The translations under genes were made by a program, and so were the position numbers. The notes beneath the pieces were generated by a model. That model was not told the DNA's origin. It saw nothing but the letters and a program-made list of their open reading frames with translations, and searched no databases. DNA of 63,550 bases, the filler included, from Atractiella rhizophila (Eukaryota), in assembly GCA_021432655.1 (NCBI GenBank). It is 3 parts of 3 records of this genome, joined end to end, with 100 filler letters (N's around TTAATTAATTAA, not from the genome) between each part and the next. Parts side by side here need not be neighbours in the genome. Positions count along the whole stretch, not along the records: positions 29,806 to 59,480 come from MU271717.1; 2 more parts are not named here. The stretch is one strand, 5' to 3'. This document shows positions 6,232 through 59,580 of the stretch, in pieces (position 1 is the stretch's first letter; the number at the start of each line of letters is the position of its first letter).

Positions 6232-8724
6232 TTATTTCCAAGGCTTCGACTCCTGCTCTTTCTGGACCGCTCGACACACCAGGGGTTCTCTCCAACCTTT
6301 TGATTCATGGGTGCCAGATCGAATCAAGCCCTCCCACCGCATCAACCTTCCAACGTCCTTCCATGATAATTGGATCCTCTTTTCTCGGCATCTCTCACTC
6401 AACTTCCGACCAACACGCATGTTCATCCATCCTTCCATCCCGATGGCCAACCTCTTCAATTTCGGAACAAAAGTGAAGGGAAGTAACATTCTGGCATGTA
6501 TCTCTTCAATGGCCTCTCCCAACTCTGCTGAAGTAGGAACCAACCACGTTATCCCGAGATCTGTGAGAGAGGAAGGAAGTTTGTCGAGCAAATCACTAAA
6601 GTACTCTCGATCGCTTTCCGTCCAAACTAGATAGGCGATGTCGAGGGTCTTGAGATTAGTGCATCGACGCAGTGCCTTAGAGAGAGCAGGGGTGAAGGGT
6701 GCGCGGATAGTGGTGAGGTTTTTCCCAGCGTGAGAAGCGTAGAAGTGAACGGGGAAGGAAGGCGTGAAAGTGTGAGAGCGACCACAATGCACTTTGAGTT
6801 CGCCTATCCACTTGCCGACATCTTTCGCCTGAGTCCAATGCCTCTTCATATCTTTAAGAATTTCGAGGTCAAGGTTGAAAGATCTAAGGAAGGGAAATAA
6901 GATCTCGTCGTCAATGCCGAGTGCGTAATTCCTCAGCGAATCTGTGATCGAAGCCTTGTTCCTGATATGTTGGCGATGCGACATCTTCTCTTTCTCCCGT
7001 TCCCTATCCCAAGACTTTCTTCTGATCGAATCGCAAACCGCCCCGACAGCCCCTAAGCTTCCGAAACTCTCATTCCTCCTCCTCACTGAGCGCAAACTTG
7101 ACTCCCTCGCCTCCTCTTTCCACGGTTCATAATCTCTCAAGACAAACGGGGCATAATATCCCTCTGTCCAATCCGGATAACCCCTCAACTCCAACCTTTC
7201 TAGCCTCAGATATAAATCTACCGTCTTGAGCATGCTCCAAACATTCAGACTGTCCTTTTCCTTCCTCATCCCAGCTCGCCAATCGTCCCAACATCGCTTC
7301 GAAACCCTCAAGCTCCTCAACTTTGGACATCCCGCGAGAGATCGAACAAAGGATTCCCACTCCTTTGATGTAGGTAGGTCCTTCTCATTTGGATCTGGAG
7401 CGTATACGCAGCCGGACCGTCGACGAGGATAGACGCCTCCCCACAACCCGAAGTCCAACTCAACTTCTTGGAACGCTGAGCTTACTCCACTCCCATCCAT
7501 CGCGTCCACAAATCGCTCCATTGTTCTCGCGACCGCAGACCAGTTCTCCTCGTAGAAATTCGACACCTTCAGGGCTCGAATGGGGGATGAGAAGGCGAAC
7601 CTCGGGTGCTCCATTGTTTGCACCAATAGTTCGAAGGATCGTAAGCTGGTGATCCAGACACGTGAATAAAGGATCTCGTTAGCTTGAGCACTCCAAGCTT
7701 TATTGACACGGGAGCAAGCTACGAGAGTGTTCCTCCACATAGCAATAGGTGTGGAAGGATCACTGGGATAGGTGGTGGTTGAAGGGAAATGCTTGAAGAC
7801 AAGGTGGAGAAGGCCAGAGGGCAGGAACGACCATGCACGGAGTCGGAACACATGAAGTCTCGCTCGTCCAATCCCTTCGTAAGGTTGGTACTCAGAGATA
7901 GGGCTGGTAGAATCCGAGCTGGATGGGCGAGAGGAGGAACACTGAAGTCGAAGATCTTGACTGCTCATGGGTTTGATGTGGGGGACGATGATGGCTGGCC
8001 GAAGCAGCGGCATAGAAGGGGACTTGATGGCTGGTCTCTCTACGCGGACAACTGGTTCCTCCCTCCGTTTCCCCTTCTGTTCGATCTCCGCCAACGGCCA
8101 GACAGAACAGGGAGATTGGAGCCTGAATCTGGACGGCGAAAGGGGAGGCGTGGGTAGCGGCATCCTTGGTGGCGGAGACGCTGGCGGTCTCGTTCGCAAG
8201 ATCCTTCTCGCTTTCGAGACCTTTGCCTTCGGTGCCTCCATCGTCGAACTAGACGCGGATACTGGGGAAGTTTCGTCCAGTTCCTTTGTAGAAGGTGTTC
8301 GAGGAGGAGGATACGGAAAGCTCTCACTACTGAAATCCTCGAGGTCGAAAATGCTGGATCCCGTACGCGCAGATATAGAAACTGAGTCGGCTTCGTCATT
8401 TAGATCGTGCGATAAGGGAGGAGACCGCAACCCCAGCTCTTCAGCATCCTGGGGATATGTGTACACCCAACTGCTCCCCGACCAACCCAACTCCGCCCCT
8501 TCGATGCCAAGACCAATGACCTGCCCAGCTCTATGGGGATGTTGCGCGGGGAGGTTGAGTGGAGTGCGTGGTATTGAGTTAGAGGTTGAGGGGCTGCGAC
8601 GCTGTCCTGGAGATGTGGGAGGTGGAGTTGTAGGAGGTGTTGGAGGGAAGGGAACGAGGGGTGAAAAGGAGAACGGGTTGGAAGGGAGGAGTGGAGCTTG
8701 TGGTGTTTCTGATGATGGTCTCAT
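6232..8724 (-). CDS. 830-aa hypothetical protein: Pro/Ser-rich N-terminus, F-box-like and LRR/RNI-like C-terminus
   Basis: Long uninterrupted ORF; LVACSRVNKAWSAQANEILYSRVWI F-box-like segment; LxxLxL repeats (CPKLRSLRV, CTNLKTLDI, SSLTDLGI). Confidence 0.65.
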   Translation of the reverse strand: MRPSSETPQAPLLPSNPFSFSPLVPFPPTPPTTPPPTSPGQRRSPSTSNSIPRTPLNLPAQHPHRAGQVIGLGIEGAELGWSGSSWVYTYPQDAEELGLRSPPLSHDLNDEADSVSISARTGSSIFDLEDFSSESFPYPPPRTPSTKELDETSPVSASSSTMEAPKAKVSKARRILRTRPPASPPPRMPLPTPPLSPSRFRLQSPCSVWPLAEIEQKGKRREEPVVRVERPAIKSPSMPLLRPAIIVPHIKPMSSQDLRLQCSSSRPSSSDSTSPISEYQPYEGIGRARLHVFRLRAWSFLPSGLLHLVFKHFPSTTTYPSDPSTPIAMWRNTLVACSRVNKAWSAQANEILYSRVWITSLRSFELLVQTMEHPRFAFSSPIRALKVSNFYEENWSAVARTMERFVDAMDGSGVSSAFQEVELDFGLWGGVYPRRRSGCVYAPDPNEKDLPTSKEWESFVRSLAGCPKLRSLRVSKRCWDDWRAGMRKEKDSLNVWSMLKTVDLYLRLERLELRGYPDWTEGYYAPFVLRDYEPWKEEARESSLRSVRRRNESFGSLGAVGAVCDSIRRKSWDREREKEKMSHRQHIRNKASITDSLRNYALGIDDEILFPFLRSFNLDLEILKDMKRHWTQAKDVGKWIGELKVHCGRSHTFTPSFPVHFYASHAGKNLTTIRAPFTPALSKALRRCTNLKTLDIAYLVWTESDREYFSDLLDKLPSSLTDLGITWLVPTSAELGEAIEEIHARMLLPFTFVPKLKRLAIGMEGWMNMRVGRKLSERCREKRIQLSWKDVGRLMRWEGLIRSGTHESKGWREPLVCRAVQKEQESKPWK

Positions 8725-29705: not shown

Positions 29706-29805
29706 NNNNNNNNNNNNNNNNNNNNNNNNNNNNNNNNNNNNNNNNNNNNTTAATTAATTAANNNNNNNNNNNNNNNNNNNNNNNNNNNNNNNNNNNNNNN
29801 NNNNN
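29706..29805. other. Assembly gap with TTAATTAATTAA linker
   Basis: N-run with central stop-in-all-frames spacer at 29750-29761. Confidence 0.97.
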
Positions 29806-29872
29806 TTCGAATCGGCTTCGCATGTCACGTAAATGAATGTGTTCACATGAAAAGGAGACTGCCAAAGCTTAC

Positions 29873-32800
29873 CTCCACGTGAATGACTGAGAATACATGT
29901 CTTCCTGCCGCTCTCAAAAAGCTCCTTACATCTCCACTTCCCAGCTCTCATCCTATTTCCTTCTCCGCCTCCTCCGCCTCCACAGTCTGCTCCTCTTTCT
30001 CATCAAGAGTTATCCATCGACAACAGGAAGATGAAGACGGACCCGAGCACCTCATATACTTCTCAGTGCACCTCAAGCAAACGTATTCAACGTTGAAGAC
30101 GATTGAGCTCTTCCCATCCTTTGGTCCCAAAGTGCCGGCGCCAACCTCCCTCATGCACACGTCGCCTATGACACCAGATTCTCAGTGAATTTGCCCAGAA
30201 GTAAGAAGAGGAGAGGACGATGTGGTGGCATACATCGAATTTCGCCGTGAAGCTCGCCTTCTCCAGGCTTGTTTCTCTTCCGATACTTTCCTGGTGTGGA
30301 ATTATACGCTCTTTTCTCCGCAAATGGCACATCGATCCTCCTGGCCACGATCTGTTCTGGTTGAAGTGGTTTGCCTTCCTTCCAGCTGTCCATATCGATC
30401 TCGTCCATATCCACATCGTCCTCCTCTTCCCTCTCATCGACCATGGAAGGTCTCCCCGCCAAAGTACCACGTCCGCGACAATCGAGACAAGCGAAATGTG
30501 CCTCCCAATCCGTCTTCAACTCGTCCTCAGTGCCGACGAGGGAGATGCGCACGATGGCCTTCCCGCAGGTTGTGCAGTGGATGACATGGTCCTCAGCGGC
30601 CTTTGGCCCTTTCTTGGGCTTCTCTGTAGTTGATTTGGTATTAGTTAGAGGCTTCGCAGAAGACGCGACGGCTCCAGAAGAAGCTACCTTTCGCAGCTTA
30701 TGAGCCTTAGGGGGAGGTTCGGCTGGCGCTTGGGTTGCGGTGACGGTGGTAGGTGGGATGGTTTGAGCGACGGTGGATGGGATTTGGGCGTGGGGCTGGT
30801 ATTGCAGATGCTGCGGGAGAATGTGTCCCATCTGTTGGACCTGCAGTGAACCATAAGCCGAAGGATCTTCGGACTGCAGCTGGTGAACTGGCTGGGGCTG
30901 GCCATAGAGCGTAGTCCTGAAATGTTCAAGATTCCGCTGTGTGGTGGGACTGTCTTCTCCCGTCTCGTTTGCTGTTGGAGGAGGGATATAGCCTCTAAGA
31001 CCACCAATGTTCGGACAGGACCTTGTACGGTGAAGGGATGGCTGAGGGTACTGGCGGCTCGCTTCCTCAAAGGAGGGGGTATGTTCGGGATAGAATGGGC
31101 GGCGCTGTGGCTCGTACGCCTGTTGAACCGGTGGAATCCAGGATTGATACTGCAGCTGGTGTTGTTGCGGCGGAGGGTTGGACGGTGGTGCGTAGGAAAT
31201 TTGATGTTGAGGATGAGATTGGAGAGGGGGATAGTGAGCGTAAGGAGGTTGCATCCGCTGGGAGCGAGATGCCTGAGATTGAACAGGTGGCGGTTGTGCC
31301 TGATGAATGTGGAAAGGTCCAGAAGTCGAAGGAGGAAGCTGCTGATATGCTTGGCCATGGTGACCGCTCTGGGATTGTAAAGGGTATGAAGACTGAGCCC
31401 TTTGCGCGTTCGACTTGGATGTGTGTCTCTGTTGTTCCAGCTGGAAGAATTGATTGGATGGTAAACACGTCGTCGATATCGGAAGGTACGGATGCTGTTG
31501 CTGGAGTGGAAGAGGATACTGAACCGTCGATTTTGAGGGGGACAGTGGGCCTTTTGTCTCGCCGTGGCTTACGGTCTGGGGTTGGGCATGCGCGACCTTA
31601 AATTGATTGTAGTCGGCGCCGACAGGCACATCCGTCCTCGGTCTATAACCGCCTACCGCACCTGGCGCAATGGCTTCTCTTGCTTCTACTCTCCCATCAG
31701 CGGCCGTGTGCTGCTGATAACCCTGTAACGTCTGTTGCTGTTGAGGGAGATACAGCTTCTCGAAATTTTGGGTGTGGCCGCTTAGCGCATCTTGGCGCAA
31801 TTGCCCACTCGCTCCTACTGACATTCCATGAGCGCCGATGGGAGGGGGTTGAGCAGGCGCCAAGTAAGGAGGCGAATAAACGTCCGCTGGAAGTCCGCTG
31901 GCGATAGGATGAGACATGGAATACTGAAACGGCAAGTGCCTGTGGTCCTGCTCCGGCAGAGCTTCGTGCGCCGTGGTTGGGGAGGGAGGCAGAGGCAGAT
32001 TAGCAGGGAGGTAAGGGTTGAAGGAGTATGGGCCACTACCTCCTCCTCCCTGAGGGTGAGAATGACTGAAGATATTGTTTTCTGGAGAAAGGGAGGTCGC
32101 TGACGAAGTTGAAGTTTGAGCCGAAGAGGAGGAGTGCCTTCCACTTGTTGGCAAAGTCTGCATCGAAGCTGAGGCGGTCCAACATGGTTCTGGCAGGTAC
32201 GAGGCAACGGAGGGCGGATTATAGGACGGTTGGGAGTACGACATGTCCTGATACACGGCTGGTTGCTGTTCTCCTTTCTTCGTCAGCGAGAGAACCAATT
32301 GTAAAAATGGATCACTCGCCGTCTGAAAGCTCCGAACTTGCGCTGAAGACCCGATCGTTAGAGAGAAATCGTAGATCTGCTTAGGAGCCGTTACCGGAAG
32401 GTCGATTGGCGCTTGCGTGCCGGAGGCAGGACAGGATTCGTTGGGAAAGATCAGCGTCACCACTACGAAGAAGCATTTGTATCAAGTTTTTATCGTGAGA
32501 AATAGAATGGATGCATGCACCTTGTTCTTCCTCTTCCATGCACTCCGCGCATATTTGCAGCACATCCATCGCTTTTTGAATCGTCCATTCCATATAATCA
32601 AAGTTCCAGATAGTCTATCGGCTAGATTAGGCGCAGGGGCTACCATGGTGGAGGATGTATACCTTTTGGCAGAGTGAACCTATGTCGTTGTCCGAAGCAA
32701 TGGCAACTTTGGCATTAGGACGCAACTGTGGACGTCATGACCTGCGATTCACTTGGTGGAGAAACCACAAACAATCAACATAGCCTCGAGAAGAATGTCC

Positions 32801-34207
32801 AGAGGATCTGGAACCTATCAGAAATCAGTGTGGCCATCGGAGATGAATGAAGAGAAGCATACCGCCTTTTGTATTGACTCATCACAGCAAATCTCATCTA
32901 CGCTCTCATCTGGTTGTCTTTCCGACGGCGAAGGTAATCTCGAGCCACCAGCTCTCAACAGGCGAGGCAGTAGTCTACCCTTGAACATGGTTCTGCTAAT
33001 AAACAATGTTTGATCCCCGGCTCCGCCAACGTTTTGGTCTCCGGGGATGGAGAAGATTCCATGACCTGCGACGTGGTAAGAACAATATTGTCACAGTGAA
33101 ACGTCTAAACGAACGCGGTTTATGTGGGCTAGTTAAGACAGATATCCCTGGCAGAGTGCCATAATCACGACTCACAAGAAACCCCGCTGGTTCAACCCCC
33201 ACGTTAAGACTAAACGTACCACCGGACTGATGAAATACGGCATGAACCCAATCCTGCGATTTGATGACACCATTGATCATACAAAGATTCTTCTGGTTTT
33301 CAAAACGGTATTCGTCACGGAAATCGGCTTCTAGCACCGCCTTGTAGTGCTGTTTGAAGTATCGAACGGCAAGGGGCAGGTGTGTCACACGGAAAGAATG
33401 GGGATCCGAATTTGTGGCCAAAATGGCTGCATGCTGCGATTGGTTGCAGTATTCGAGCTGAAAGCTGGGAATCGCGCCAATAGGGCTATCTACATCTTTC
33501 AGAAGATCGAAGCAAGGGAAACGAGCAACGCACATGGGGCAAGTAGCATCGATGTCCACCATTTTACAACTAAGCCTACCCCTCTGAAGTGGTATCTTGT
33601 GGTACCAAGCCGAACCTCCTGACTTATATGTGAGTGGTTTGTCGTCTGGCCCTAAGAATTCCTCAACGTTCCGCGAAAAGTTGAAAGTGCCGTTATTGCA
33701 GTATCCAAAATCCCCAATGCGCCATTCACCGCCCCAGCCTGCCCGTCTACGGGAAGTAGACGAAGGTGATGCCGCCAAAGGAGGAGCATCGAGGAGCCAA
33801 GGGCTTGAGCGACTACTAGCTAAGTGGCTAGACGAAGATGGTTGAACGGAGGGACTAGTAACAGCAGTTGACAGAGAGGGTGGAAGGCTGACGTCAGCAG
33901 GGGCTGGATAGACACAATGAGGAATTAACGCTTGTGGATCTTCTACAAAGATATAGGGATCTTGCGTGGAAAACGTGTTTGGACGCGTATTTGAGGCACC
34001 AGAAAGATCCGATCTGGGGGTCGAGGACGGAGGATCAGCCCTGCTATTAGATGCCTCGGGGATGGAAATGGATGGATTGTGCACAGAGGTCACGGTTGGA
34101 GGAGCGACGGGATCATCTTGGGCATAGGGATAGTAGATGGGCCAGTGACGCACGGAGTCATACATGAGAGCTTCATAGATGTAATGAGGTTCGTAGCCTG
34201 AGCACAT
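29873..34207 (-). CDS. Large multi-exon protein: predicted gasdermin-like N-terminal domain + Q/P-rich region + multi-Cys zinc-binding domain (3' end lost in gap)
   Basis: Exons 34207-33115, 33065-32863, 32814-32773, 32725-32663, 32614-32521, 32462-30234, 30165-30043, 29986-29873, all joined by 47-68 nt GT-AG introns in one frame (about 1,320 aa). Motifs WPIYYP, WRIGDFGYCNNGTFNFSRN, NLCMINGVIKSQDW, DQTLFI, PDPLDILL, AKVAIASDND; C-terminal CTTC, CLDC, CDVC, CLRC, CSDCGGGGG, GKWRCKELF, RKTCILSH. Confidence 0.7.
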
Positions 34208-34561
34208 GTTGCTGGAACTTCAAGGAAGAATGCAGAGAAATGCTAAGTGCAGAAGATAGGACAGCGAATTTTCTCTCAAGAGTCTCGCGCATGTTAAATG
34301 CAGAAAAGAGGAAAAGCGTCGAGGATGAACGGTTTGGACGAGATGAACAATCTTCCTCATCGCACTGTCAATAAATTGGTGCCCAAGACCGCATTTAATG
34401 GGAACCTTAGTAACTTGAACAAAATTCCGTAATTACTCGATTCATCAAGATGGAGAGAACGAAATCACGTTGACAAGAACGCGAAGGAGGGGCATGGCAT
34501 CATTTAAGGTTCTCATCATGTGACTAAAACCCAACCCTTCAATGACTGCTCTCTATCGTGA

Positions 34562-35355
34562 TCGGGAGACCCAACCTTTGTAGCAGCTTTGGCAAATGCT
34601 CTCCTCACGAGAGCTTGCATATAGTTTCACGACCTGGCGGCCCATTGTGTTCGCTTCACGACTGCTCACGATCGCGTTCGGTTCGCAACTGCCCACCATC
34701 TCCTTCAGTTCGCCACTGCTCGCGATCGTGTTTGCTTCGCGACTGCTCGCTAACATTTTTGCGTGGCAACAGTTTTGCAATCGTGTCGGCTTTGCGACTA
34801 CCTGCTAACGTTTTCGGGCAACAGTTTGCAATAGTGTTCGCTTCGCGAACTCTCAAAGCCCAGCTTCGCAATTACTTACAACTGTGGCCAGCCCTTTGCA
34901 TTCTATCCAACGTATTTTAGACGTAAGTAGCGCTAATGACAGGCCCGAGATGTAGCTTCGACGACATATAATTTGTATTAAGGGTGAGTGAATATTAAAA
35001 AAAGCGGAGGTCAAAATACAGACTTCATATGCATGCAAAAATGCAATTCCATATTGCTTCGCCATTATTCTTTGTATTTTAGATGTGAGTGCGGTGAGTG
35101 GTGGGCCTGAGGGTTAGATATTACTATGTATAAAACATCACAAAATGCGAGGGTAAAAATACACATTTGTAAGCAGTCGCGAAGCAAACACAAATGCGAA
35201 GATTTGCGAGCGAACACGATCGCAAGCAGTCCCGAACTGAAGGAGATCGCGAGCACTCGCGAACTGGACACGATGGCCACCACTCGCGACATGGTTTGCA
35301 AGCTCTCGCGAGGAGAGTGTTTGCCAAAGCTGCTTCGAAGTGTTGGGTCTCGCGA
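34562..35355. mobile_element. Foldback/MITE-like element with about 200-bp imperfect inverted arms built from 27-bp subrepeats
   Basis: Left GAGACCCAAC..GCAGCTTTGGCAAATGCTCTCCTCACGAGAGCTTGCA is the reverse complement of right TGCAAGCTCTCGCGAGGAGAGTGTTTGCCAAAGCTGC..GTTGGGTCTC; AT-rich centre; no TSD found. Confidence 0.6.
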
Positions 35356-37243
35356 GTTTGCAGTCTTGCAAGTCTGCTTTCTCGCGAGTTTGGCCTTGCC
35401 GTCAGGCTGAGATACTTGTGCGGCAGAAATACAAGGATGAAAGTATTCGTGAGGAGTGGAAGGCCGACGCCTTGGAGCATGTGATATCTATCAATGACGC
35501 GGAGAGGAAGCTCAGTCCGAAAGCTGTCGATTAGGTGCTAAAAGAACTAGAGGCATGTTCTGCTGAACTTCCTGTCCAAATACTCTCTCAACTTTCCCAC
35601 AGGAATATGACAGACTTTGAGCTCAAGATGGTATTGAGGTTTTCTGCTTCGATGGAATGTGGCAAAGCGATTCATTGATCCCAAACGACATACGCTCCGC
35701 CTTCATCTCCTCCCTGCGTCCGCTGGAGGATCTTCCAGAATCAGGAAAAGACTGGGACCTGCGCTCGGACCACCAAGTTCTAAACCTCGTTGATCCCTCC
35801 CTCTACCCCATCCTGTACAAGCACACTCGCGCCTATCCGCGATCTATACCTGCCGAAGAAAGGAATTGGTGGAACATCCAAGAGCTGATTTTGCCCTGGT
35901 GTCCAATAGGCGACACGGATAGCAGTTTCCCTTCCTAGAGATGGAAATACTATGTCTCCGATTCCTTTAGCTGGCTCTCGACTCCTTTCTAACTTTCTGA
36001 AGATGGAAAGTCGTGCAAGATAGCAAGCTACATCAATAATCTGGACCCAAAGAAATATCCAGCGGCCTACAAAGCACTTGAAGACATTTTCCCCCGCTTT
36101 GTACCTATGTTTGAAAGGTTGTTGAGGGACTCCAGCCTGGCAGACATAACAAGCAGGCGTGTGCCTGATAGACATCTCGGGCCTTCGTCTGGTGAAGAGG
36201 AAGCGGGGGAAGATGAAATGGACATAGACGAGGAGGAAAAGCAAGAAGAAGACGAAGGAATGATGGAAGAGCAGGAGGGCGACAACGAGCGTGAGGAAAA
36301 GGACGAGGCGCAGGACGACGATGATGGAGCGGAGAAGGAAAAGGAGCAGGACGACGCTAACGGAGAGGAGAAGGAAGAGGAGCAGGACGACCATGACGAG
36401 AGGAGAAGGAGGAAGAAGGAGGTTCTGCACTAGCGTCTTCAATTGAAGCTGGCGAGAGCAATGGCGTCCTCGCCGCCATTGGAGGAATTCACTACTAGAA
36501 TACAGGAGAAGAACGTTTCCGAGCGATGCGAAGAAAGCTGTAACTGTTTCTGACATCGGAAAGTATCCAAAAGAAGGTGTTCACGCTCTGCAGTTCGAGG
36601 AATGGAGAGAAATATCCCTGCGAGGCTTAACGCTTAAAACCTCGTGAACATCCTCCTCACTCCGGAGAAACCGACTTATCCTGGCGGGGACTGGCTCACC
36701 GAGGGTATGATGAACGAGGCGATTGTTGCGATGTGGGCCTATTATTACGACGATGAAAACGTTACCAAGAGCAAGTTGAGCTTCAGACGCGGCGTGGACG
36801 AGGTCCCCTCTTTCCCTTTACTATTTAAAAGCTACTCCTTGCGCTGACGTGTGGGCTGGTCTTAGCCGGATGATTGTGCCGATATGGAGGATGAGGAAAA
36901 CATGGCTGAGTTCGCCTTGAGAAAGTTCGTCTCCCTACTTATCTGTCCTTCGTGCTTGATTAACTTGTGCACAGCGACGGACCGTTGAATCAGCCACTTG
37001 GGGAGGTAATCACTAAAGAGGGGCGATGCATCGCTTTCCCCAACCACATCCAACACTGCGTCTCCTCCTTTTCCCTCCTCGATAAAACCAAACCAGGACA
37101 CCGCAAAATGTTGTTCTTCTATCTCGTAAATCCAGAGTACAATGATGTGCCTGACAGCTCTCTCATCCCGCCTCAACAGTGATAAATGTTACCAGCGCGA
37201 TCGAGGGCTGCAAGGTGCGAGACAAGGTAAAGCATAAAGCTTG

Positions 37244-37448
37244 TGTTAACATTGGGTCTATATGAAGGTAGAGAAATACATTACCTGCAAGGTGCGAGAC
37301 AAGGTAAAGCATAAAGCTTGTGGTCTCGCACTTGCAGGAGATCTTGTTTTATAGCAGAGAAGATGAATAATAAGGAAGAGACTAAGGAAAACCAACAGCG
37401 AGCCAGCGTGCGAAAGGAGGGTGCGTAAATGGTACCGTGTAACCAACA
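37244..37448 (-). repeat. LTR type B (205 bp, TGTT...AACA)
   Basis: Abuts the PPT; core nearly identical to 41588-41743 but termini differ. Confidence 0.88.
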
Positions 37449-37464
37449 AACTCCCCCTCGCATC

Positions 37465-40400
37465 CTACTTTCCATCCATTCCAATTTCCTCCATTGCATT
37501 ATCCATCTTCATCCTTGAAACACCCTTCGTAAGCATATCCGCCGGCAGATCTTTCGTATCCATGTAGAGGAGTCTGATCTTTTCATTGAGGACGCATTTG
37601 TGGGTGTAGTGGAAAGGTATGTCGATGTGTTTTGTTCGTTGTCGAAAAACGGGATTGTTTGCGAGCTGATGAGAACCTAGGTTGTCGCCAAAGATCGTGA
37701 TTGGAGAGTCGAGCGGGAAACCAAGGTCGTCAAGAAGGTTGCGGAGCCACGTCGCCTCGCGAGCTGCGACAGATAGAGCGACGTACTCGGCTTCTGTGCT
37801 CGAAAGAGTAACAACTGATTGCTTCTTGCTCTTCCAAACGACGGCGCCGCCAGCGTTCGTGAACAGCGTCCCTGAGATGGATTTGAGGTCGTACGAGGTG
37901 GCGAAGTCTGAGTCGGAATAACCTGTGAGTCCTTCTCCATCGCTTCGATATGTGATTTTGAAGTGTGAGGTGCCTTGTAGATATCTGAAGATTCGTTTGA
38001 CCGCTTTCCAGTGAAGCGATGAGGGGTTTTCGGCGAATTGAGCGACTTGTGTGAGGGCAAAGGCGAGGTCTGGTCTCGTCGCGATCATCAGGTACAACAG
38101 TGACCCAATGGCCTCTCGGTAACGGCCAATCCACGATTCGGGAATCCCACCTTCCTCCTCATCTTCCTCCGTCGCCGGCTCCAACTTCCCTCCAATCTCG
38201 AACGGCGTTGCAACTGCCTTGCAGTTCTGCATTCCGAATTTCTCCAACAACCGTTCGACGAAGGCTTCTTGATCGATGGAGATTCCGTTGTCGGATTGGG
38301 TGATCCGGATTCCTAGAAAGTGCGTAGCTCTCCCTTCGTCCTTCAACTTGTAGTGTTTCTCAAGTTCTTTCTTGACGGGTTCAGCATCTTCGTCACTTTC
38401 CGCCATAATCGCGAAGTCGTCGACGTAGACTCCGACCAGTACATATTTTCCTGTCTTCTCATCTTTCTTCGTGTAGATTGTTGATTCTGACTTGCTTTGC
38501 TTAAAGCCCATACTCTTCAGCTTTTCATCCGCATCCCCGTTCCAGACTCGACCGCTCTGATGGAGGCCGCACACGCCCTTCGTCACTTTGAGGACCCAAT
38601 CAGGATGCTCGGGGTCTTCCCAGCCAGGAGGTGGACGAATATAGACAGGTTTGTCGAGTTTCCCGTAGAGATACGCTGCTGAAACGTCGACCATGTGGAC
38701 TGGCCGCCGGTTCTTCCCTCCAATGGACAGGATCAAGCGAAACGACGGCATGGAGAGGACCGGAGAAAACGTTTCGTCATAGTCGACCCCTTCGCGTTGC
38801 GTGAAGCCTTGGGCGACGACTCTCGCACGAAATCGGACGGTTTCTCCCCCTGGACCCAGCTTCTCCCTCAACACCCATTTTGAACCGATTACATCCTCAG
38901 GCAACGGCACCATTTCTCCGACTTCCCTCTCTCTCCACGAGCTCTTCTCCTCGTCAAATGCGTCCCGCCATTTGGAGGCGTCAGGACCGTTGACTGCTTC
39001 TTCGTACGATGGAGTGAGATTACGAGAGGGGCTAGCGATGATAATGCGAGCGACGGCATCGGAAAGAGGTGAGTCTCCGAAGTACTTTGCTCTGTTTTCT
39101 TTCTGAGCTTCTGCAGGAGAACGACGAGCTCGCTGAGAGCGTTCGCGGGGCGGAGGTGGGTCAGGTTTCACCTTCGACGGCACCTCAGTGGGTCTCTCCC
39201 CTCTTTCTGTTCCTCTCCCTTTTCTACCATGTCTGATGTCTCTTCGGGAGCAGGGGGATCCAGCACTTCGTTAGTTTGGACTTCGAGAGATTGAAGGAGG
39301 GTCGGAGGGTGAGTTTCGTCGAATTGGACATGGAGATGTTTGGTAACTGACCCGTCTTTGGGGTTGTAGATCCGATAAGTCTTGCTCTCCCAATCATAAC
39401 CGACCAGTCTCCCTTCCCACGAACGCGCATCCAGCTTCTGCCTGTTTGGCTCAGGAGGAACTAGGCTGTAAGTTCGACATCCCAGCACTCGCAAGTGCTC
39501 CACTGACGGCTTCTTTCCAGTCCAAACCTCGAAAGGCGTCTTGCCTTTGAGCGCGACGGTTGGGCGGCGATTTAGGAGGTGAATTGCGGCGACAGCGAGT
39601 TCTCCCCACAGCTTCTTGGGGAGATCGGAAGTGTAGAGGGTAGAACGGATGAGGGAAGCGATGGAGAGGTTGAGACGCTCCGCGACGCCGTTCTGTTGCG
39701 GAGTGTAGGAGGCAGTGTGCTCGTGCTTGATGCCATGAGACTTCAGGTACGTCTTGAACTCGTTGCTGGTGTACTCTCCTCCGTTGTCTGACCTTATCCC
39801 TTTGATTTTCAGGCCAGTCTCAAGCTCAACCCTCGCTTTGAACTCCTTGGAGGTGGAGAAGACGTCGGACTTTCGTTTGAGAAGGTAAATCCACTTTCTC
39901 CGAGTCGCATCGTCTGTGAAACTGACCCAGTATTCAGCTCCACCGATCGACTTCACGGGCGCAGGACCCCACACGTCGGTGTGAACGAGTTCGAGTTTCT
40001 CGTTGGCGCGTTTCGAAGGTCCAGAGGGCAAAGGTAGCTTGGATTGACGGCCAAGGAGACATCCAGCGCAAGGTGCGTGATGATCATCCTCTCCCACTTC
40101 CATACCTCTAACCATTTCTTTCTTCTGCAGCTCCTTAAGTCCATCCATAACCAGGTGACCGAGCCGGCAGTGCCAAACGTGAGCGGAGGGCGTTTTCGCG
40201 GCAGTGGTGAGTTTCACTTTCGCTTCACTCGCTTCCAGGAACAGCACTGACGCATCGAGTTTGCGCAGGCCGCCTTCCGCACTGATCTCCGCCACAACAG
40301 GCCCGTCACGTTTCACGATCCGGCCTCGTCTGTCTGCGGAGAACAGGACGTCGAAACCGCGAGTATTGAGTTTGTCTGTGGAGAGGAGTGCGCAATCAAT

Positions 40401-41500
40401 TTCGGGGTTGAAAAGAACATCGGTGAGTTCGATTTTTCTTTCCACTCCATTTACTTTTGTCAAGACTTTGACTGTTCCGATACCAGTGGCTTTCGTGACG
40501 ACTCCGTGGGACGAGCGGATGCGACGAGAGCGTGGAGAAAGCGACGAGAACCAGGAACGGAATGGGACGATGTGGTCTGTTGCCGCAGAATCGACGTAGA
40601 TCCCCTCGCGGTGAGTTCCATCTCCAGCGACTGTGTGGAAAGCCTCTGAGATCTTCGTTTCCCCAGGTTTTTCTCCTTCCTCCCGCTTCTTCTTTCGGCA
40701 ATCCCTCTCCCAATGACCTTCGATACCACAAAAAGTGGCATTTGCCCTTTTTCTTCTCGCTCTTCGACCTCCCTCCACCGCTACTTCCACCTCCCGACTT
40801 GGTATAGTTCCTTCCTACTCCCCCAGACCTCGTAACTAACGCTTCGCTAGGTTTTGAGTCTGGATTCCTTCGATGGGCTTTGAGCAGGAGACGGGAAGCG
40901 ACGTAGGAGGACGTAAAATCGGAGGAGGAGACGGCGTTGAACGAGGAGACGACTTCGATCCAGGATGGCGGCAGCGATATCAGGAGAAGCATCGCGACGT
41001 CCTCGTCATCGGTCTTGTCACCCATCGCCTTCAACTCTTGCCCCATCGTGCGAACTCGATTGACGTGATCTCGCATCGATTCGCCTTCGACGTAACGCGC
41101 AGTGTAGAGTTTCTGGCGGAGAAGAACCCGGGCTTGACGGTCTTGATTTTTGGTAGAGCTCCTTCAGCCTATCCCAAAGCTCCTTCGGCTTCTCGACGTT
41201 GATATCCCAGATATCGGTGAGTACGTGGTCTTTGCAGGTTTCGATAATGATCGAATAGGCTAGGTTCGCCCGTCTTGTCCAGTCCTTCTGCGACGCCTCG
41301 ACCTTCGCGACTTCCTCCAGCTTCCCAGCCTCTCCACCAACGGCAACGGGTTTGACATCTGTCCCAGCAACGATCCCCCAGCAATTCTTGCCGAGCAGCT
41401 TCGCCTGGACACCGAAGTACCAGATGTGGTAGTTCTCCCGTCCCTCGAGTTTCGGGACAGTCGAAGAAGTAAGTACGGTGGTGACATGACTTTCAGACAT
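37465..41500 (-). pseudogene. Copia gag-pol polyprotein with three frameshifts (about 41130, 40735, 39185)
   Basis: Gag, CHFCGIEGHWERDC knuckle, DSAATDH protease, HCRLGH, integrase DVWGP/SDNGGEY/AERLN, RT YVDD, RNase H YSDSDFA/TEAEY/ADMLTK. Confidence 0.92.
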
Positions 41501-41559
41501 TTGAGGCTGACGAGGTGGCAGGGGATTCGGCTAGATGAGAACGAGCTCTCGCTACCAAT

Positions 41560-49142: not shown

Positions 49143-50200
49143 TCATATCACAAGTTTGAGCGAAGTCCTGCGATTCTTCGAATCTGATTTCCCATTGACC
49201 ACTGTCGCATCATCTTCCTCAGCCACGTCGTCGATTTTCACCATGGGTATGATGGGGACGGTCTTACGCCTTTCCTTGTCTTTTTCCTTCTTCACCTTGT
49301 CCTTCTCCTCGATCACAGGCATCGGGAGGGGAGGGGGCGCAGGGCTGCAGAGCTCGTACGCGTCGTAACCTATTCCAAACTGCGTCCTTCGTGCTGTGGC
49401 GACGACGATGATTTTGTTCAGCCATTCGTATCTATCGCTCGTCTGAGGTCGGGGACACAGGACGAAGGCGAAAGTGAACGCACCGTTTGTCCCCCGTCTC
49501 CAATTGGACGGACATATGGAAGACTACATGCTCCGATTCCTGCTCAGTAAGCGTGTGCCCGTCGAGAATCTTTCTCAACAAATGTTTGGGTCCACGGCGA
49601 CATCCTTTAGTTTGAACATAGATGAACGCTCCATCGTCCGTCTACCAACAATGTCAATGATGTTAATTCGTTGATTCGAACATGGAGGAACGTACTTGGA
49701 GGTTGTAGCGCGTGTCTGTGTACACCTCTCCATCTTTCAACATTATTCTAATTTAACCGCTTTTCAGAAGCTTCGAGAAGATAAGGCTGAACGGTCTCAC
49801 AGATGATCTCCTCCTCCCGTGAGAATCTTTCCTTTCAGACGGTCACCTTTGAAATAGCCGGATGTGATTGAGAGAGCACTACCGTGTGAAGGAACGCACA
49901 GAGGAGTTAGTTAGTATGATATCCGTTAACCTTACGAGTTGGGAGAGAGAAGCGAGTGAATTTTCAGAGGTGCTAGCCAAGCTCAACGATGAATGCACTT
50001 GGGAGTGCACGTTTCAATTGAATACATTTCTAATCAGATGAAAATCCAGCGTCACAATTGCGTTGGGCATTTGGTAGAGTTGTTTCACACAACAAACAAT
50101 ATCGAGTACGATGTCCTCAGTTTGGAGTGCCCTGACTTGCTCTGACGACGCCAGACAATATCCATAATTATTCCTGTTGCACAGATACTCGTCTGGGACG
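49143..50200 (-). CDS. DUF3237/UPF0311-family protein with charged C-terminal tail (5' boundary uncertain)
   Basis: Spliced ITSGYFKGDRLKGKILTGGGD, DTRYNLQ, TDDGAFIYVQTKG, QLETGDKRYEWLNKIIVVATARR...YDAYEL. Confidence 0.75.
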
Positions 50201-50915
50201 GATCTGGAGTTTCGATCAGCAGGCTAATGCAGCTGAATGACTAGATTTTCGACGTGATGATTCTCACGTAACGCAGGTGCATTAGACCTCCTTCAAAATG
50301 GAAAACAAGAACGAAGGGGCGTGCTACAACGTCGTTAGAGAACAGTGACTCGCATGTCTTGCTGTAGGAAAGACGGATGACTGAAAGGAGCCTTGCAGCG
50401 ATGGATAAATCACGCAAAACAAAAATAGGGTGCTTAACTCGAAACTGTGAGGAATAAAGCACACACCGACGATACCCAAAGGGACCTCTGCCAAAGTCCA
50501 CCGGCTGCTCGATGCGAAAGAGTGTGTAGAGATGTCGGAGAGTGGGGACAGGGAGCATTGCCTGCATCTTTCGTCGAATCGCTCCTCTTGAGTAAAGGTA
50601 AACCTCGTGCAAGCCTTCGTTGAAACGGATGTGGGAGGAATGGTGTAATGATGTGGTGTTGTTATATCGGAAGAAGGAATGGCGTCGTATCCTTGTCGGG
50701 AGTTGCAGCACCGCCAGCTTGGGGCTGAGCCAGCTGATACTTTGTTGGTGGGAGACAGGGACAACTGGCAGCAAAATGAGAGCGCAGGGGAACCGATCAG
50801 ACGACTTGGCCAGTTCCTGAAGCGGTCCTGCTGCGGATGGAAGTTGAGCAGATTAGGGTTGCGGAATCAATTGCGTGTTAGGGTCGTCGCGTCGCCCGCA
50901 AAAACAACGACCAGT

Positions 50916-51799
50916 NNNNNNNNNNNNNNNNNNNNNNNNNNNNNNNNNNNNNNNNNNNNNNNNNNNNNNNNNNNNNNNNNNNNNNNNNNNNNNNNNNNNN
51001 NNNNNNNNNNNNNNNNNNNNNNNNNNNNNNNNNNNNNNNNNNNNNNNNNNNNNNNNNNNNNNNNNNNNNNNNNNNNNNNNNNNNNNNNNNNNNNNNNNNN
51101 NNNNNNNNNNNNNNNNNNNNNNNNNNNNNNNNNNNNNNNNNNNNNNNNNNNNNNNNNNNNNNNNNNNNNNNNNNNNNNNNNNNNNNNNNNNNNNNNNNNN
51201 NNNNNNNNNNNNNNNNNNNNNNNNNNNNNNNNNNNNNNNNNNNNNNNNNNNNNNNNNNNNNNNNNNNNNNNNNNNNNNNNNNNNNNNNNNNNNNNNNNNN
51301 NNNNNNNNNNNNNNNNNNNNNNNNNNNNNNNNNNNNNNNNNNNNNNNNNNNNNNNNNNNNNNNNNNNNNNNNNNNNNNNNNNNNNNNNNNNNNNNNNNNN
51401 NNNNNNNNNNNNNNNNNNNNNNNNNNNNNNNNNNNNNNNNNNNNNNNNNNNNNNNNNNNNNNNNNNNNNNNNNNNNNNNNNNNNNNNNNNNNNNNNNNNN
51501 NNNNNNNNNNNNNNNNNNNNNNNNNNNNNNNNNNNNNNNNNNNNNNNNNNNNNNNNNNNNNNNNNNNNNNNNNNNNNNNNNNNNNNNNNNNNNNNNNNNN
51601 NNNNNNNNNNNNNNNNNNNNNNNNNNNNNNNNNNNNNNNNNNNNNNNNNNNNNNNNNNNNNNNNNNNNNNNNNNNNNNNNNNNNNNNNNNNNNNNNNNNN
51701 NNNNNNNNNNNNNNNNNNNNNNNNNNNNNNNNNNNNNNNNNNNNNNNNNNNNNNNNNNNNNNNNNNNNNNNNNNNNNNNNNNNNNNNNNNNNNNNNNNN
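50916..51799. other. Assembly gap (884 N)
   Basis: N-run. Confidence 0.99.
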
Positions 51800-52547
51800 T
51801 CCCCTACCTCTCTCTACCACTCCTTCTGGTGTACCCTCCACCTTACCGATACCCACAGCCGCACCTTCCACTTCTCCCGACAAGGATATCCTACTCCCCG
51901 CCTCCTCCCTTCCTCTTCTACCACAATCGCATGTACAGAATGAAAGGGCGAGGGATTCGACCCCTCCACCGCGAAAGAAGCGAAAGCTCTCTCCCGAACC
52001 TTCCAAACCCGCACCACGCCCTCCTCCCAAGATCCACTTCAAGCAACAATTCGTCCAGTCCGTCTCCCCGCGCTCCGACACCATCCACACAATCACATTC
52101 GGGGGGAAGGACCGGATGAAGATGATCCCAGACCTGGTGCCAGAGGCGACGCGGCGGTCTCAGCAGGAGGCACGGCGACAGCAGCAGGCGGCGCTGTGGA
52201 AGGAGGACAAGGATTCGCACTTGGAGAGGTTGATGGGTACCTCGGATCCGAGGAAGTTGCAGGAGCGGTTCAGCGCGCTCGAAGTCGCGAACGGAAGGCT
52301 GAGGGCGAGGGTGTTGGAGTTGGAAGAGGAGTTGGAGGGAGAGAAGAGCTGGAAGAGGGAGGTGGGGAGGTTGTGGAATCAGGCGAAGATGAAGGGAGGG
52401 AAGGAGGAGGTTAAAGTGCTGGCAAGAGTGAAGGACTGGATGGGGAGGTGGTTTGATCAACCATCTGGGGAGACGGAGAGGAAAGACAGGGTCGGAGAGA
52501 AGAGAAAGAGAGAGGATATTGGAGAGATTGTGGTGGTGGATGATTGA
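51800..52547 (+). CDS. 3' part of a hypothetical protein (Pro-rich, NLS-like PPRKKRK, coiled coil)
   Basis: Open frame from the gap to TGA at 52547; heptad pattern LQERFSALEVANGRLRARVLELEEEL. Confidence 0.55.
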
Positions 52548-53102: not shown

Positions 53103-56100
53103 TCACGGCATCTTAAACGATCGTTTCCAACACCACCATCCAGTCCTCCCAGATTCTGCATCAATCTTCGCGATGCGATCGAGGCAGTAAGACCTGCTGC
53201 CTAAATCCCCTGAGTAGACATAGAGCCCCTGAGCCTTCTTGAATCGCTCCAACGCTTGCTCATGCCTCCCGCATCGAAAATGGACCTCCCCCACGGCGCG
53301 GAGGCAGTTTGCCCTCCCATGTGTACTCCCCATCAAGATGTACAGCTCCTCTGCCTCCCTGAATCGCCCCAGTGCTTCCTTGTTCCTCCCAAATTGAAAA
53401 TCGACCTCCCCCATGGCTTGGACACAGTCTGCCCTCCCAACTGTACTCCCCGTCAAGATGTACAGCTCTGCTGCCACCTTGAATCGCCCCAGCGCTTCTT
53501 CATTCCTCCCACAATGAAAATCGATCCACCCCATAGCTAGGACACAGTCCGCCCTCCCAACTGTACTCCCTGTCAAGATGTACAGGTCCGCCGCCTCCTT
53601 GAATCGCCCCAGCGCTTCTTCGTTCCTCCCGCAATGAAAATCGATCCTCCCCATAGCTTGGACACAGTCTGCCCTCCCAACTGTACTCCCTGTCAAGGTG
53701 TACAGCTCCTCTGCCTCCCTGAATCGCCCCAGTGCTTCCTCATTCCTCCCAAATTGAAAATCGACCTCCCCCATGGCTTGGACACAGTCTGCCCTCCCAA
53801 CTGTACTCCCCGTCAAGATGTACAGCTCCTCCGCCTCCTTGAATCGCTCCAGCGCTTCCTCGTTCCTCCCACATCGAAAATCAATTCTCCCCATGGATTG
53901 GACGCAGTCTGCCCTCCCTTGTGTACTCCCAGTCGAGATGTACAGCTGCTCCGCCTCCTTGAATCGCTCCAGCGCTTCCTTGTTCCTCCCACATCGCAAA
54001 TCAATATCCCCTACGGATCGGACACAGTTTGCCCCTCCCAAGTGTACTCCCGGTCAAGATGTACAGCTCCTCTGCCTCCTTGAATCGCTCCAGTGCTTCC
54101 TCATTCCTCCCACATCGAAAATCAATTCTCCCCACGGATTGGACACAGTCTGCCCTCCCTTGTGTACTCCCCGTCGAGATGTACAGCTCCTCCGCCTCCT
54201 TGAATCGCTCCAGCGCTTTCTTGTTCCTCCCACATTGCAAATCGATATCCCCCCATGGATCGGACACAGTTTGCCCTCCCTTGTGTACTCCCAGTCGAGA
54301 TGTACAGCTGCTCCGCCTCCTTGAATTGCTGTAATGCTTCCTCGTTCCTCCCACATCGCAAATCGATATCTCCCACGGATTGGACACAGTCTGCCCTCCC
54401 TTGTGTACTCCCCATCGAGATGTACAATTCCTCCGCCTCCTTGAATCGCTCCAGCGCGCTTCCTCGTTCCTCCCACATTGAAAATCGATATCCCCCATGG
54501 ATTGAACGCAGTTTGCCCTCCCTTGTGTACTCCCAGTCGAGATGTACAGCTGCTCCGCCTCCTTGAATCGCCGCAACGCTTCCTCGTTCCTCCCACATCG
54601 AAAATCGATCATCTCCCGCGGATTGGACACAGTCTGCCCTCCCATGTGTGCTCCCGGTCGAGATGTACAGCTCCTCCGCCTCCTTGAATCGCTCCAGCGC
54701 TTTCTTGTTCCTCCCACATTGCAAATCGATATCCCCCATGGATCGGACACAGTTTGCCCTCCCTTGTGTACTCCCAGTCGAGATGTACAGCTGCTCCGCC
54801 TCCTTGAATCGCTCCAGCGCTTCCTTGTTCCTCCCACATTGCAAATCAATATCCCCCATGGATTGGACACAGTCTGCCCTCCCTTGTGTACTCCCCACCG
54901 AGATGTACAGCTTCTCTGCCTCTTTGAAGCGCTCCAACGCTTCGTCATTCCTCCCGCATCGAAAATCTATCTGGCCTATACATCCGAGGCAATCTGCTTT
55001 GTTTTCGATTTCTGTACTATCCATCATTGAACCATCCAACTCCTCTAAGGCTTCTTTAATATAACCGCGAGATTCAAGTGCCTTTCCGAGGTACAACTGC
55101 AAGCGAACTGATGCTGGAGCAGATAAATGGTGGTTGGATAAGGTTCTCTGTAGCAGTTGTGTTGTGTCGAACCCCTGGTAAAGGAGGGTTAACGAGTTTT
55201 CCAACAGGAATGTTTCAATTCTTTCGCTCATATTTTGAAGATGCAGCAAACCGTCAAAAACAACCTGCTGAAAGTTCAGATATTCATCCCTGAATTCAAG
55301 CAATGCATCCGGCTGCTTCGTCACTTCGAATTGGTAGATTATTGCTTGCGCTTTGAGTAGTAGGCAATTAGAGAGAGGTTGAAGGGAGTCTGGGACTCGC
55401 AGAGGGAATGGGGGCATTTGTTTCAAAACAAGTTCGTTGATGTGCCTTCGAACTGGGGCCAGCATACGCAAGCGTTTTGAAGTTCTCTTCATCGCAGGAA
55501 TGTCATCCGCTAGTCCAACACTCAGAATGGCATCAAGGGCACGATAATCTCCAGCAAGTAAGTCCTTTAAGTCGGCTCGCAGGAGACCATCTGGAGACCA
55601 CGACAGAAATGACAAAGCAAGGAAGCTGCCTGGCTGTTCTCTGATAACTGGAGAAGCAAGAGAAAATCCGAGTGATATGTCGAGTGTAGGAGTACCGTCT
55701 CTACCGTCTGCGTTTTCTGAAAGAACTGCACTGGCTTGGTGGCGCCAAAGATCTAGAAGATATGATGCGCTGGAAGATGGATCGTGCTGTGCTCTGAGAG
55801 CAAAAAGGCGGATACAGAGTGGATGGTAATCTAAGCACGATAAAAGCTTTGATGTGACATCCGCATTTTTTGGGTCCCGACCACCTTCATAGAAATGACA
55901 GAAGGTATCCGTTGCTGCCGCCTTATCCTTCTTCAGTGTATCAATGACAACATGTACAAAAGCAGCGCTTTTCACGTCGATTCGTGGGGCATGATGTCCA
56001 CGCATGGCAAGCACGAGAACAGAACCAACTCCTGCTTCGCCAACGAGAGCCTGAAAGAAATGTTGCATCCGTCCCGAATCTGAATCTGCAGGTGTCTCAA

Positions 56101-59480: not shown

Positions 59481-59580
59481 NNNNNNNNNNNNNNNNNNNN
59501 NNNNNNNNNNNNNNNNNNNNNNNNTTAATTAATTAANNNNNNNNNNNNNNNNNNNNNNNNNNNNNNNNNNNNNNNNNNNN
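59481..59580. other. Assembly gap with TTAATTAATTAA linker
   Basis: N-run with spacer at 59525-59536. Confidence 0.97.

Follow-up and report, generated by a model that had tools for sequence, protein, structure and literature searches.

A single intron-rich gene of Atractiella rhizophila joins the front module of a modular multigene family, a lead for a divergent gasdermin-type fold, to a Q/P-rich and Cys-rich tail

The window analyzed here is a stretch of 63,550 nucleotides of Atractiella rhizophila DNA (assembly GCA_021432655.1), composed of parts of three records joined end to end, with positions 29,806 to 59,480 coming from MU271717.1. The gene in question lies on the minus strand, from an ATG at 34207 to a splice donor at 29873. 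It is a single, intron-rich fungal gene of at least 10 exons that is expressed as spliced RNA and read in one frame, and its product has three parts: a front module of ~490 amino acids (aa) shared with a modular family, a Q/P/S-rich region of ~560 aa and a Cys-rich tail. A preliminary description had proposed one gene fusing a gasdermin-like N-terminal domain to a Q/P-rich region and a Cys-rich module. The fusion is borne out by transcript contigs, an open frame and paralog homology, while the gasdermin-like label is an interpretation that we keep as a lead.

Four public sequencing runs, X1–X4, hold parts of the stretch, and the X4 contigs were placed on 29820–34500. The library type of X4 is not recorded; we treated it as RNA because its contigs are spliced. 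Assembled contigs do not give expression level or transcript ends. X1–X3 span short pieces only (shares 0.06–0.13) and were used for no inference on habitat or expression level; these window-identical pieces come from RNA libraries of three further studies. X4 contained eight joints; on the minus strand, seven of them had GT–AG or GC–AG ends. The remaining one (29972→30043, with 5 intervening letters) becomes GT–AG only when re-read: the 5 letters match 29986–29982, leaving a 9-nt difference in the GGAGGCGGA repeat of a diverged copy, and an intron at 29987–30042 is the only reading that keeps the frame open.

The joint at 32462→32521 skips 58 bases with CT..AC ends on the plus strand, equal to GT..AG on the minus strand, and matches exactly the intron at 32520–32463 that had been drawn from the sequence, joining EEEEQ to the big downstream open reading frame (ORF). 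The phase also agrees: the exon ends ...GAA CAA G, and this G combines with TG to form a GTG codon at the acceptor. The earliest in-frame ATG of the big ORF, at 32244, opens an ORF of 692 aa. Four joints (32265→32320, 32462→32521, 32614→32663 and 32725→32773) are supported by one contig each at an equal depth of 9.05; we read them as one contig running from ~32181, which is 3′ of ATG 32244, to ~32795, and derived from the window copy or a close copy. No X4 contig covered 32803–32959. The exons and introns of the resulting model are as follows.

33534–34207, minus strand: exon 1, aa 1–224; X4 colinear over 33534–34110 and 34099–34322, X2 with 0 other letters over 33827–34118.
34195–34118, minus strand: conserved N-terminal motif within exon 1, aa 5–30, common to the relatives P0001, P0002, P0004, P0008 and P0009 (see below).
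34117–33743, minus strand: S/P-rich variable linker within exon 1, aa 31–155.
From aa 156 (GEWRIGDFGYC...), minus strand: beginning of the conserved core, within exon 1.
33486–33533, minus strand: intron 1, 48 nt, GT–AG, in frame; X4 joint 33485→33534.
33115–33485, minus strand: exon 2, aa 225–348, conserved core; X4 contig with 0 other letters, and paralog alignments.
33066–33114, minus strand: intron 2, 49 nt, GT–AG; X4 joint 33063→33113 (cut +2), with both ends verified.
32863–33065, minus strand: exon 3, aa 349–416, end of the core with the VGDQTLFISR motif; homology, with X4 over 32990–33063 only.
32934–32863, minus strand: conserved Pro/Ser-acidic linker within exon 3, aa 393–416.
32815–32862, minus strand: intron 3, 48 nt, GTATGC...GATAG, predicted only; P0009 aligns across it in one high-scoring segment pair.
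32814–32773, 32725–32663 and 32614–32521, minus strand: exons 4–6, aa 417–482; X4 joints 32725→32773 and 32614→32663.
32772–32726 and 32662–32615, minus strand: introns between exons 4–6; X4 joints.
32463–32520, minus strand: intron 6, 58 nt, GT–AG; X4 joint 32462→32521 (side 94), phase checked.
32320–32462, minus strand: exon 7, aa 483–530, its first ~10–30 aa (VVTLIFPNE...) being the last stretch shared with paralogs by blastp.
32266–32319, minus strand: intron 7, 54 nt, GC–AG, in frame, inside the 771-aa ORF; X4 joint 32265→32320.
30234–32265, minus strand: exon 8, aa 531–1207; open frame, with X1, X3 and X4 contigs showing 0 other letters on parts.
To 30691, minus strand: Q/P/S-rich low-complexity sequence within exon 8, to aa 1055, by composition.
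30588–30478, minus strand: first CxxC-x25-CxxC unit within exon 8, aa 1090–1126.
aa 1137–1156 and aa 1188–1197, minus strand: acidic run and basic patch, respectively, within exon 8.
30166–30233, minus strand: intron 8, 68 nt, GT–AG; X4 joint 30164→30233 (cut +1), with both ends verified.
30043–30165, minus strand: exon 9, aa 1208–1248, second CxxC-x25-CxxC unit and beginning of a third Cys cluster; X4 and open frame.
29987–30042, minus strand: intron 9, 56 nt, GT–AG, from the re-read joint 29972→30043; X4.
29873–29986, minus strand: exon 10, aa 1249–1286, a Gly run and further Cys/His, ending at the donor GGAG|GTAAGC; X4 loose end.

With eight transcript-defined introns and one predicted intron removed, the spliced frame stays open from ATG 34207 to 29873, a length of 1,286 codons. 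This is shorter than the product of at least 1,320 aa first proposed, in which the introns at 33533–33486 and 32319–32266 had been missed. The 16 aa that the first of these would encode are missing from all paralogs; the second is invisible from the ORF alone. A split gene was already suggested by the string of stop-to-stop ORFs in the same direction, one of 407 aa (32996–34219), one of 771 aa (30166–32481) and small ones between and after. At the 5′ end, a 1,047-letter X4 contig departs from the genome at 34110, a position with no AG acceptor, and carries on for 23 letters found nowhere in the window; colinear X2 and X4 contigs pass through the same point. This departure may come from a variant or a chimera, or may mark an alternative 5′ end.

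The gene sits at the extreme end of a contig of ~29.7 kb. Position 29873 is a splice donor (GGAG|GTAAGC), beyond which an X4 contig has another 255 letters with no match in the window, and an artificial contig joiner, TTAATTAATTAA at 29750–29761 with runs of N on both sides, starts 58 bases past the donor. Together these observations indicate that the gene is truncated by the contig end and that the C-terminus is missing; the remaining 3′ exons are on another contig. A second TTAATTAATTAA joiner, with stops in all six frames, is found at 59525–59536, so that the window consists of at least three chained contigs and features near the joiners are cut. Sequence searches of protein collections, including NCBI nr, did not find the gene among public predicted proteins, and the window member is seemingly missing from public annotation. 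The genome itself is publicly annotated, since another window ORF (6235–8724) is letter-for-letter identical to an NCBI nr protein, and the absence of the gene is probably due to its running off the contig.

X4 also contained tail contigs that diverge from the window by 5–8%, covering 30917–32331 and 29820–30290 at a depth of 80–430, whereas the zero-mismatch X4 contigs are shallow, with a depth of 7.7–19.8. The diverged tail copy has the same GC–AG intron (the splice of intron 7 is repeated there, as a loose end at 32254), is joined to the same exon 7 upstream of it, and extends a further 255 letters. Apparently, the organism of X4 has a second copy or allele, better expressed, that includes at least exon 7 and the tail.

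The front module is not unique to this gene. With exon 1 as the query, phmmer gave six matches at E ≤ 0.001 among 1.84 billion representatives (E 8e-78 to 5e-5), and a family-profile search gave nine. Including cluster members, these make up 11 distinct relatives, P0001–P0011, all of them hypothetical proteins from A. rhizophila and probably paralogs of the window gene. From these searches, which met the front module only in A. rhizophila, it appears to define a lineage-restricted multigene family. Metagenome scans with the family alignment found no relative, and tblastn with all family members against the window found no locus beyond the window gene.

By blastp, the spliced model aligns with P0009 in one piece over aa 5–492 (53% identity, E 4e-157), with P0003 and P0010 up to aa 492, and with P0004 up to aa 511; P0003 is 47% identical to the window protein. 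The homology spans the junction at aa 482/483 and ends 10–30 residues into the big ORF, at about 32434, which provides independent support for the splice at intron 6. Likewise, the one-piece alignment of P0009 across 32862–32815 supports the predicted intron 3.

The module has five parts: an N-terminal motif, a variable S/P-rich linker, a core of ~250 aa, a second linker and an extension of ~70 aa. A six-member alignment contains 49 invariant columns. The core motifs GDFGYC and VGDQTLF are invariant, the second linker has the pattern GGSxxPSPS-acidic and the extension ends in ...LTLxF. The window gene has all of these features, namely the N-terminal motif, GEWRIGDFGYC, VGDQTLFISR, the PSPS-acidic linker and the extension. 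The extension corresponds to exons 4–6, ending ...CMEEEEQ, and is homologous to P0003, P0004, P0005, P0009 and P0010; AlphaFold2 drew helices over it at low confidence. The S/P-rich linker ranges from absent in P0008, which at 284 aa is the smallest complete-looking member, to ~125 aa in the window gene.

Members of the family hold the front module and swap tails. P0009 and P0010 have RNase III-like tails (PF14622, E 3e-4 and 5e-6, respectively, both below the Pfam cutoff), P0004 and P0005 have a common tail of another kind, ~250 aa in length, and a short acidic tail is found in P0003 and P0007. In P0011 the tail is of a third type, with a His...NCxxF pattern and a hydrophobic end in its C-terminal half; this tail presumably resembles LRAT/PLAAT-type lipid-modifying enzymes, and Pfam gave no match for it at E ≤ 0.1. 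Three members share a single A. rhizophila contig, and several of the family are fragmentary. Pfam identified no NTPase (NACHT/NB-ARC) or repeat family in the window ORFs or in the 11 paralogs, which sets the family apart from NLR (NOD-like receptor) or STAND proteins.

The tail of the window protein begins with the Q/P-rich region, aa 496–1055 (P 15%, Q 13%, S 11%), which had been put at about 600 aa; the region is there, and its length is closer to 560 aa. Prion-like domains are recognized by strong Q/N enrichment with little proline. Here, Q+N reaches at most 27% in any 60-aa window, nearly all of it Q, and proline makes up 7–27% throughout. By this composition, the prion-likeness that had been considered for the region does not hold up: a prion-type amyloid is unlikely, and the stretch looks more like a disordered region of the regulator type.

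The Cys-rich part contains two similar CxxC-x25-CxxC units with an acidic run and a basic patch between them, and further Cys/His residues after. Gapless alignment of the two units scored 33, compared to 22 ± 4.4 for shuffled sequences, a value reached by 10 of 500 shuffles. When the tail exons were scanned singly, no Pfam zinc-finger or DNA-binding family (C2H2, Zn2Cys6, GATA etc.) was matched, and the only Pfam row was DUF7129 (E 0.022, 14.9 bits against a cutoff of 30). The best matches among PDB chains had E values of only 0.25–1.4. By blastp, the window tail matched none of the 11 paralogs; the 771-aa ORF, used whole or as residues 600–771, had no homolog among proteins of 424–1350 aa, and a metagenome scan with the first zinc unit found no relative. 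As for a homolog carrying both the front module and this tail, then, none of the 11 relatives shares the tail, although the same module does occur with other long tails, and the diverged X4 copy of the tail is joined by splicing to the same exon upstream.

Is the core a gasdermin? We consider it slightly favored that the core has a very divergent gasdermin-type fold. The lead comes from the ESM Atlas, which was queried with P0001 and P0003. The 30 nearest clusters were unnamed, and those shown were from Basidiomycota, with feature scores of 0.95–0.97. Among the nearest clusters that carry a Pfam name, all five listed were Bact_GSDM (0.84) or Gasdermin (Gasdermin/PJVK, 0.80; gasdermin-E, 0.79); the Bact_GSDM label is on 11% of the members of the 0.84 cluster. 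For reference, the Atlas bar for the feature score is 0.9; a third of shuffled proteins score 0.8 or more, and a template-modeling (TM) score below 0.5 generally points to another fold. The P0001 model in the Atlas (predicted TM score 0.62) had TM scores of 0.58–0.64 to three unnamed Basidiomycota clusters, one of them an 801-aa protein with WD40 repeats, and of 0.36/0.29 to gasdermin D and 0.33/0.47 and 0.32/0.44 to two bacterial gasdermin clusters. Between 179 and 211 residues were aligned to gasdermins (211 for Gasdermin D, 179–187 for the bacterial clusters). Renormalized to the ~250-aa core, the TM scores become roughly 0.55–0.65, by our own arithmetic rather than as output of the tool. 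Gasdermins are the only named Atlas rows to recur for both members and in feature and structure searches alike; the one other row with a name is the WD40 cluster, which has no family over the aligned part. Other properties would suit a gasdermin. There is no transmembrane segment (Kyte–Doolittle maximum 1.27) and no N-terminal hydrophobic stretch, which suggests a cytosolic protein, like gasdermins; after the ~250-aa conserved core come a conserved linker and the ~70-aa extension; and P0008, at 284 aa, is gasdermin-sized.

A number of results weigh against this assignment. The gasdermin-like domain of the preliminary description found no counterpart in Pfam, PADLOC or the PDB, and survives only as the Atlas lead. 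Pfam, in a library that did not include PF26164 Bact_GSDM, matched nothing at E ≤ 1 for the window ORFs and six paralogs, and only the RNase III-like rows at E ≤ 0.1 for five more paralogs. The defense-system protein models of PADLOC matched none of six proteins at E ≤ 10, and a family-profile search of PDB chains gave no match at E ≤ 10. AlphaFold2 models were unusable, with a mean predicted local distance difference test (pLDDT) value of 30.2 for P0001 (10-row alignment) and 32.5 for P0008 (14 rows), because there are too few diverse relatives, and Foldseek with the P0008 model returned chance rows only (best E 3.3). The pLDDT of the P0001 Atlas model was only 0.55, and all of the Atlas gasdermin scores are below the tool's own bars, with one method behind both members. 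The RNase III-like tails of the paralogs look effector-like rather than inhibitory, and we know of no gasdermin in which a variable linker splits an N-terminal motif from the core. A homolog with the same tail was not found in the protein, paralog or metagenome searches. Finally, no S8 or CHAT protease gene was identified by Pfam on the 5′ side of the gene (20 ORFs at 34.5–50.9 kb and five ORFs at 50.7–57.6 kb). The earlier remark that no protease gene lies nearby is thus upheld for the 5′ side, which is the side the search covered; the 3′ side lies past the contig end.

The 5′ neighbors that Pfam did identify were a DUF4246 gene, a copia element with gag, integrase and reverse transcriptase, and an NLR-type gene, arranged as follows.

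34649–34848, flanking the gene on its 5′ side: degenerate tandem repeats with units of 27 and 55 nt, 73–81% matches.
35621–36430, plus strand: DUF4246 gene in two exon-like ORFs (Pfam E 6e-16 and 9e-16), the immediate 5′ neighbor, divergent.
37465–41530, minus strand: Ty1/copia-type long terminal repeat retroelement, with gag, pre-integrase, integrase, SH3-like and RVT_2 in consecutive ORFs.
53103–57580, minus strand: NLR-type gene with patatin-like phospholipase, STAND NTPase and TPR (Pfam), including a 1,152-aa ORF.

On the 5′ side and on the same contig, the distance to the gene is 3 kb for the copia element and 19 kb for the patatin-STAND-TPR gene. In the latter, the STAND NTPase match (nSTAND1) was just under the cutoff, and further TPR ORFs were found at 53106–53894 and 54004–54948; we take this architecture to be reminiscent of PLP-1 of Neurospora. 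Within the DUF4246 gene, there is an acidic 36-nt tandem repeat at 36265–36410, and the ORF-like frames over 34546–35540 have repetitive translations. The G+C content falls sharply to 0.283 at 50001–52000, compared to 0.45–0.55 elsewhere, and the long ORFs at 50679–52547 (plus strand) and 50867–52084 (minus strand) had no match in Pfam. Rfam gave no match over 29816–37500. The clustering of members on one contig, the NLR gene and the nearby copia element fit a fast-turnover family of the immune type.

The explanation that we tentatively put first, while giving it a little less than an even chance, is that the gene encodes a modular gasdermin-type executioner of cell death or defense with a regulating or sensing tail, its function being inferred. 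The front module would be a cytosolic executioner with a gasdermin-type, pore-forming core, and the conserved extension might do what a short inhibitory segment does at the C-terminus of microbial gasdermins. The interchangeable tail would act in cis, either holding the front module inactive or sensing a trigger. Release could occur when the conserved Pro/Ser-acidic linker is cleaved, or through binding or some other event at the tail, after which the core would insert into membranes. In the window member, the Q/P-rich and zinc tail may serve as a transcription-regulator-type segment that acts as sensor or bait. A broader proposal, which we consider speculative and on balance unlikely, is that there is a Basidiomycota-wide, divergent gasdermin clade, absent from Pfam, in which the pore domain is carried in cis with swappable C-terminal domains (WD40, RNase III-like, Q/P-rich zinc). 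Its members would act as single-chain sensor-executioners, independent of any dedicated neighboring protease, with the Atractiella genes as the most elaborate. The Atlas contains dozens of such Basidiomycota clusters, with 59–113 members each.

The rival that survives best, although we think it unlikely, is that the front module, rather than forming pores, is a regulatory, oligomerization or localization domain, and that the window protein is a nuclear regulator. The Q/P-rich stretch would then be activation-type or condensate-forming disorder, the basic patch a nuclear-import signal, and the CxxC units would bind zinc and either nucleic acid or protein. The make-up of the tail, with its P, Q and S content over 560 aa, acidic run, basic patch and paired CxxC, is that of many eukaryotic transcription regulators, and there is no gasdermin signal at the sequence level, the lead coming from one kind of tool. 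However, the Cys-rich module matched neither a Pfam zinc-finger or DNA-binding family nor, with any confidence, a PDB chain (best E 0.25–1.4), and unrelated paralog tails such as the RNase III-like ones do not suit a dedicated family of transcription factors. Nor are core regulators typically lineage-restricted and partly fragmented, as this family is.

The constant front with swappable tails could also be read in the opposite direction, with the variable tails as the active effectors (RNase III-like, possibly lipid-modifying, Zn/Q-rich) and the front serving for delivery, anchoring or self/non-self recognition, comparable to polymorphic toxins or allorecognition genes. Two of the tails are enzyme-like (PF14622), members are clustered on one contig with several fragments among the family, and an NLR gene and a retroelement are close by, all of which agrees with such a family of polymorphic effectors. 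On the other hand, there is no signal peptide or transmembrane segment for export, the RNase III-like matches are below the Pfam cutoff, and Pfam finds no enzyme-like domain in the window's own tail. We regard this possibility as rather doubtful.

It is improbable that the gene is a young chimera or decaying copy, in which a rearrangement near the retroelement joined a family member to a gene for a Q/P-rich zinc protein, leaving low transcription and no selected function. Such an origin would account for the lack of a same-tail homolog in our searches, for the copia element 3 kb upstream, for the low depth of the zero-mismatch X4 contigs next to the diverged tail copy (7.7–19.8 against 80–430), and for the gene not being among the public predicted proteins searched. 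Against it, 1,286 codons are open across nine introns, all spliced in phase, and window-identical pieces occur in the RNA libraries X1–X3. Furthermore, the diverged tail copy is spliced to the same exon 7, which means that the junction region predates the duplication. Hardly credible, finally, are two separate genes, one for the N-terminal domain ending near 32400 and an independent one starting at ATG 32244: that ATG does open a 692-aa ORF, and the 3′ half is deeper in X4, albeit from contigs that are 5–8% diverged, but a spliced X4 contig bridges ~32181 to ~32795 over four introns, paralog homology crosses the junction and the frame is open throughout. The contigs do leave room for an extra internal promoter producing a short form.

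If the gasdermin-type reading is correct, a gasdermin module in long chains with swappable tails would represent a third mode of control for pore formation, and gasdermin-type cell death would be extended into the Basidiomycota, which are little covered in the available text of PMC8851545, PMC10197012 and PMC12881547. If the gasdermin fold fails, what is left is an undescribed, expressed, lineage-specific multigene family with a 490-aa front and unrelated tails. In either case, the family gives a handle on rapidly evolving, probably defense-related genes in a lineage of plant-root endophytes.

Fungal gasdermins such as HET-Q1 of Podospora anserina and RCD-1 of Neurospora crassa resemble the front module in being cytosolic, belonging to patchy, multi-copy families tied to cell death, and having a ~250-aa core followed by a short conserved C-terminal segment; gasdermin families are also the nearest named ones in the Atlas. 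According to the text available for these papers, fungal gasdermins are short (HET-Q1, 278 aa; PMC8851545) and are activated by a neighboring S8 or CHAT protease or by allele pairing (PMC8851545, PMC10197012, PMC12881547), and ~80% of them are clustered with a protease gene (PMC8851545, PMC12881547). The window gene differs in having no Pfam Gasdermin match, no S8 or CHAT gene upstream, an N-terminal motif and linker, and an 800-aa tail in cis. In the parts of the literature that we covered, which excluded supplements (e.g., the datasets of PMC8851545, which may list Basidiomycota members), we found neither a fungal gasdermin bearing a long heterologous tail nor an account of the front-module family.

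Bacterial gasdermins form the nearest named cluster (0.84), with TM scores of 0.44–0.47 when normalized by the bacterial model. Unlike them, the window gene is eukaryotic, intron-rich and far longer, with no PADLOC match and no adjacent protease upstream. It also lacks their conserved N-terminal cysteine as a family feature: Cys2 is found in the window protein, but not in P0001, P0004, P0008 or P0009. Mammalian GSDMD is alike in idea, with a pore-forming N-domain that is silenced by a downstream part and a cleavable linker between the two, and 211 residues of the P0001 Atlas model align to the Gasdermin D cluster, with a TM of only 0.36/0.29. In contrast to the helical Gasdermin_C repressor, however, the tail in the window consists of disordered low-complexity sequence and zinc-type units, and it varies among paralogs.

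Plant NLRs with integrated decoys are immune receptors or executors that carry a domain of the host-target type in cis as bait. The comparison is one of analogy only, with the transcription-regulator-like tail as the bait, and the window gene has no NOD or STAND domain by Pfam. The family-profile HMMER search did not reach the unnamed Basidiomycota clusters of the Atlas, and their likeness is by features and model only; on that measure these clusters, of 330–530 aa and including an 801-aa WD40 fusion in which the repeats come after the aligned part, are by far the closest look-alikes of the front module, at 0.95–0.97.

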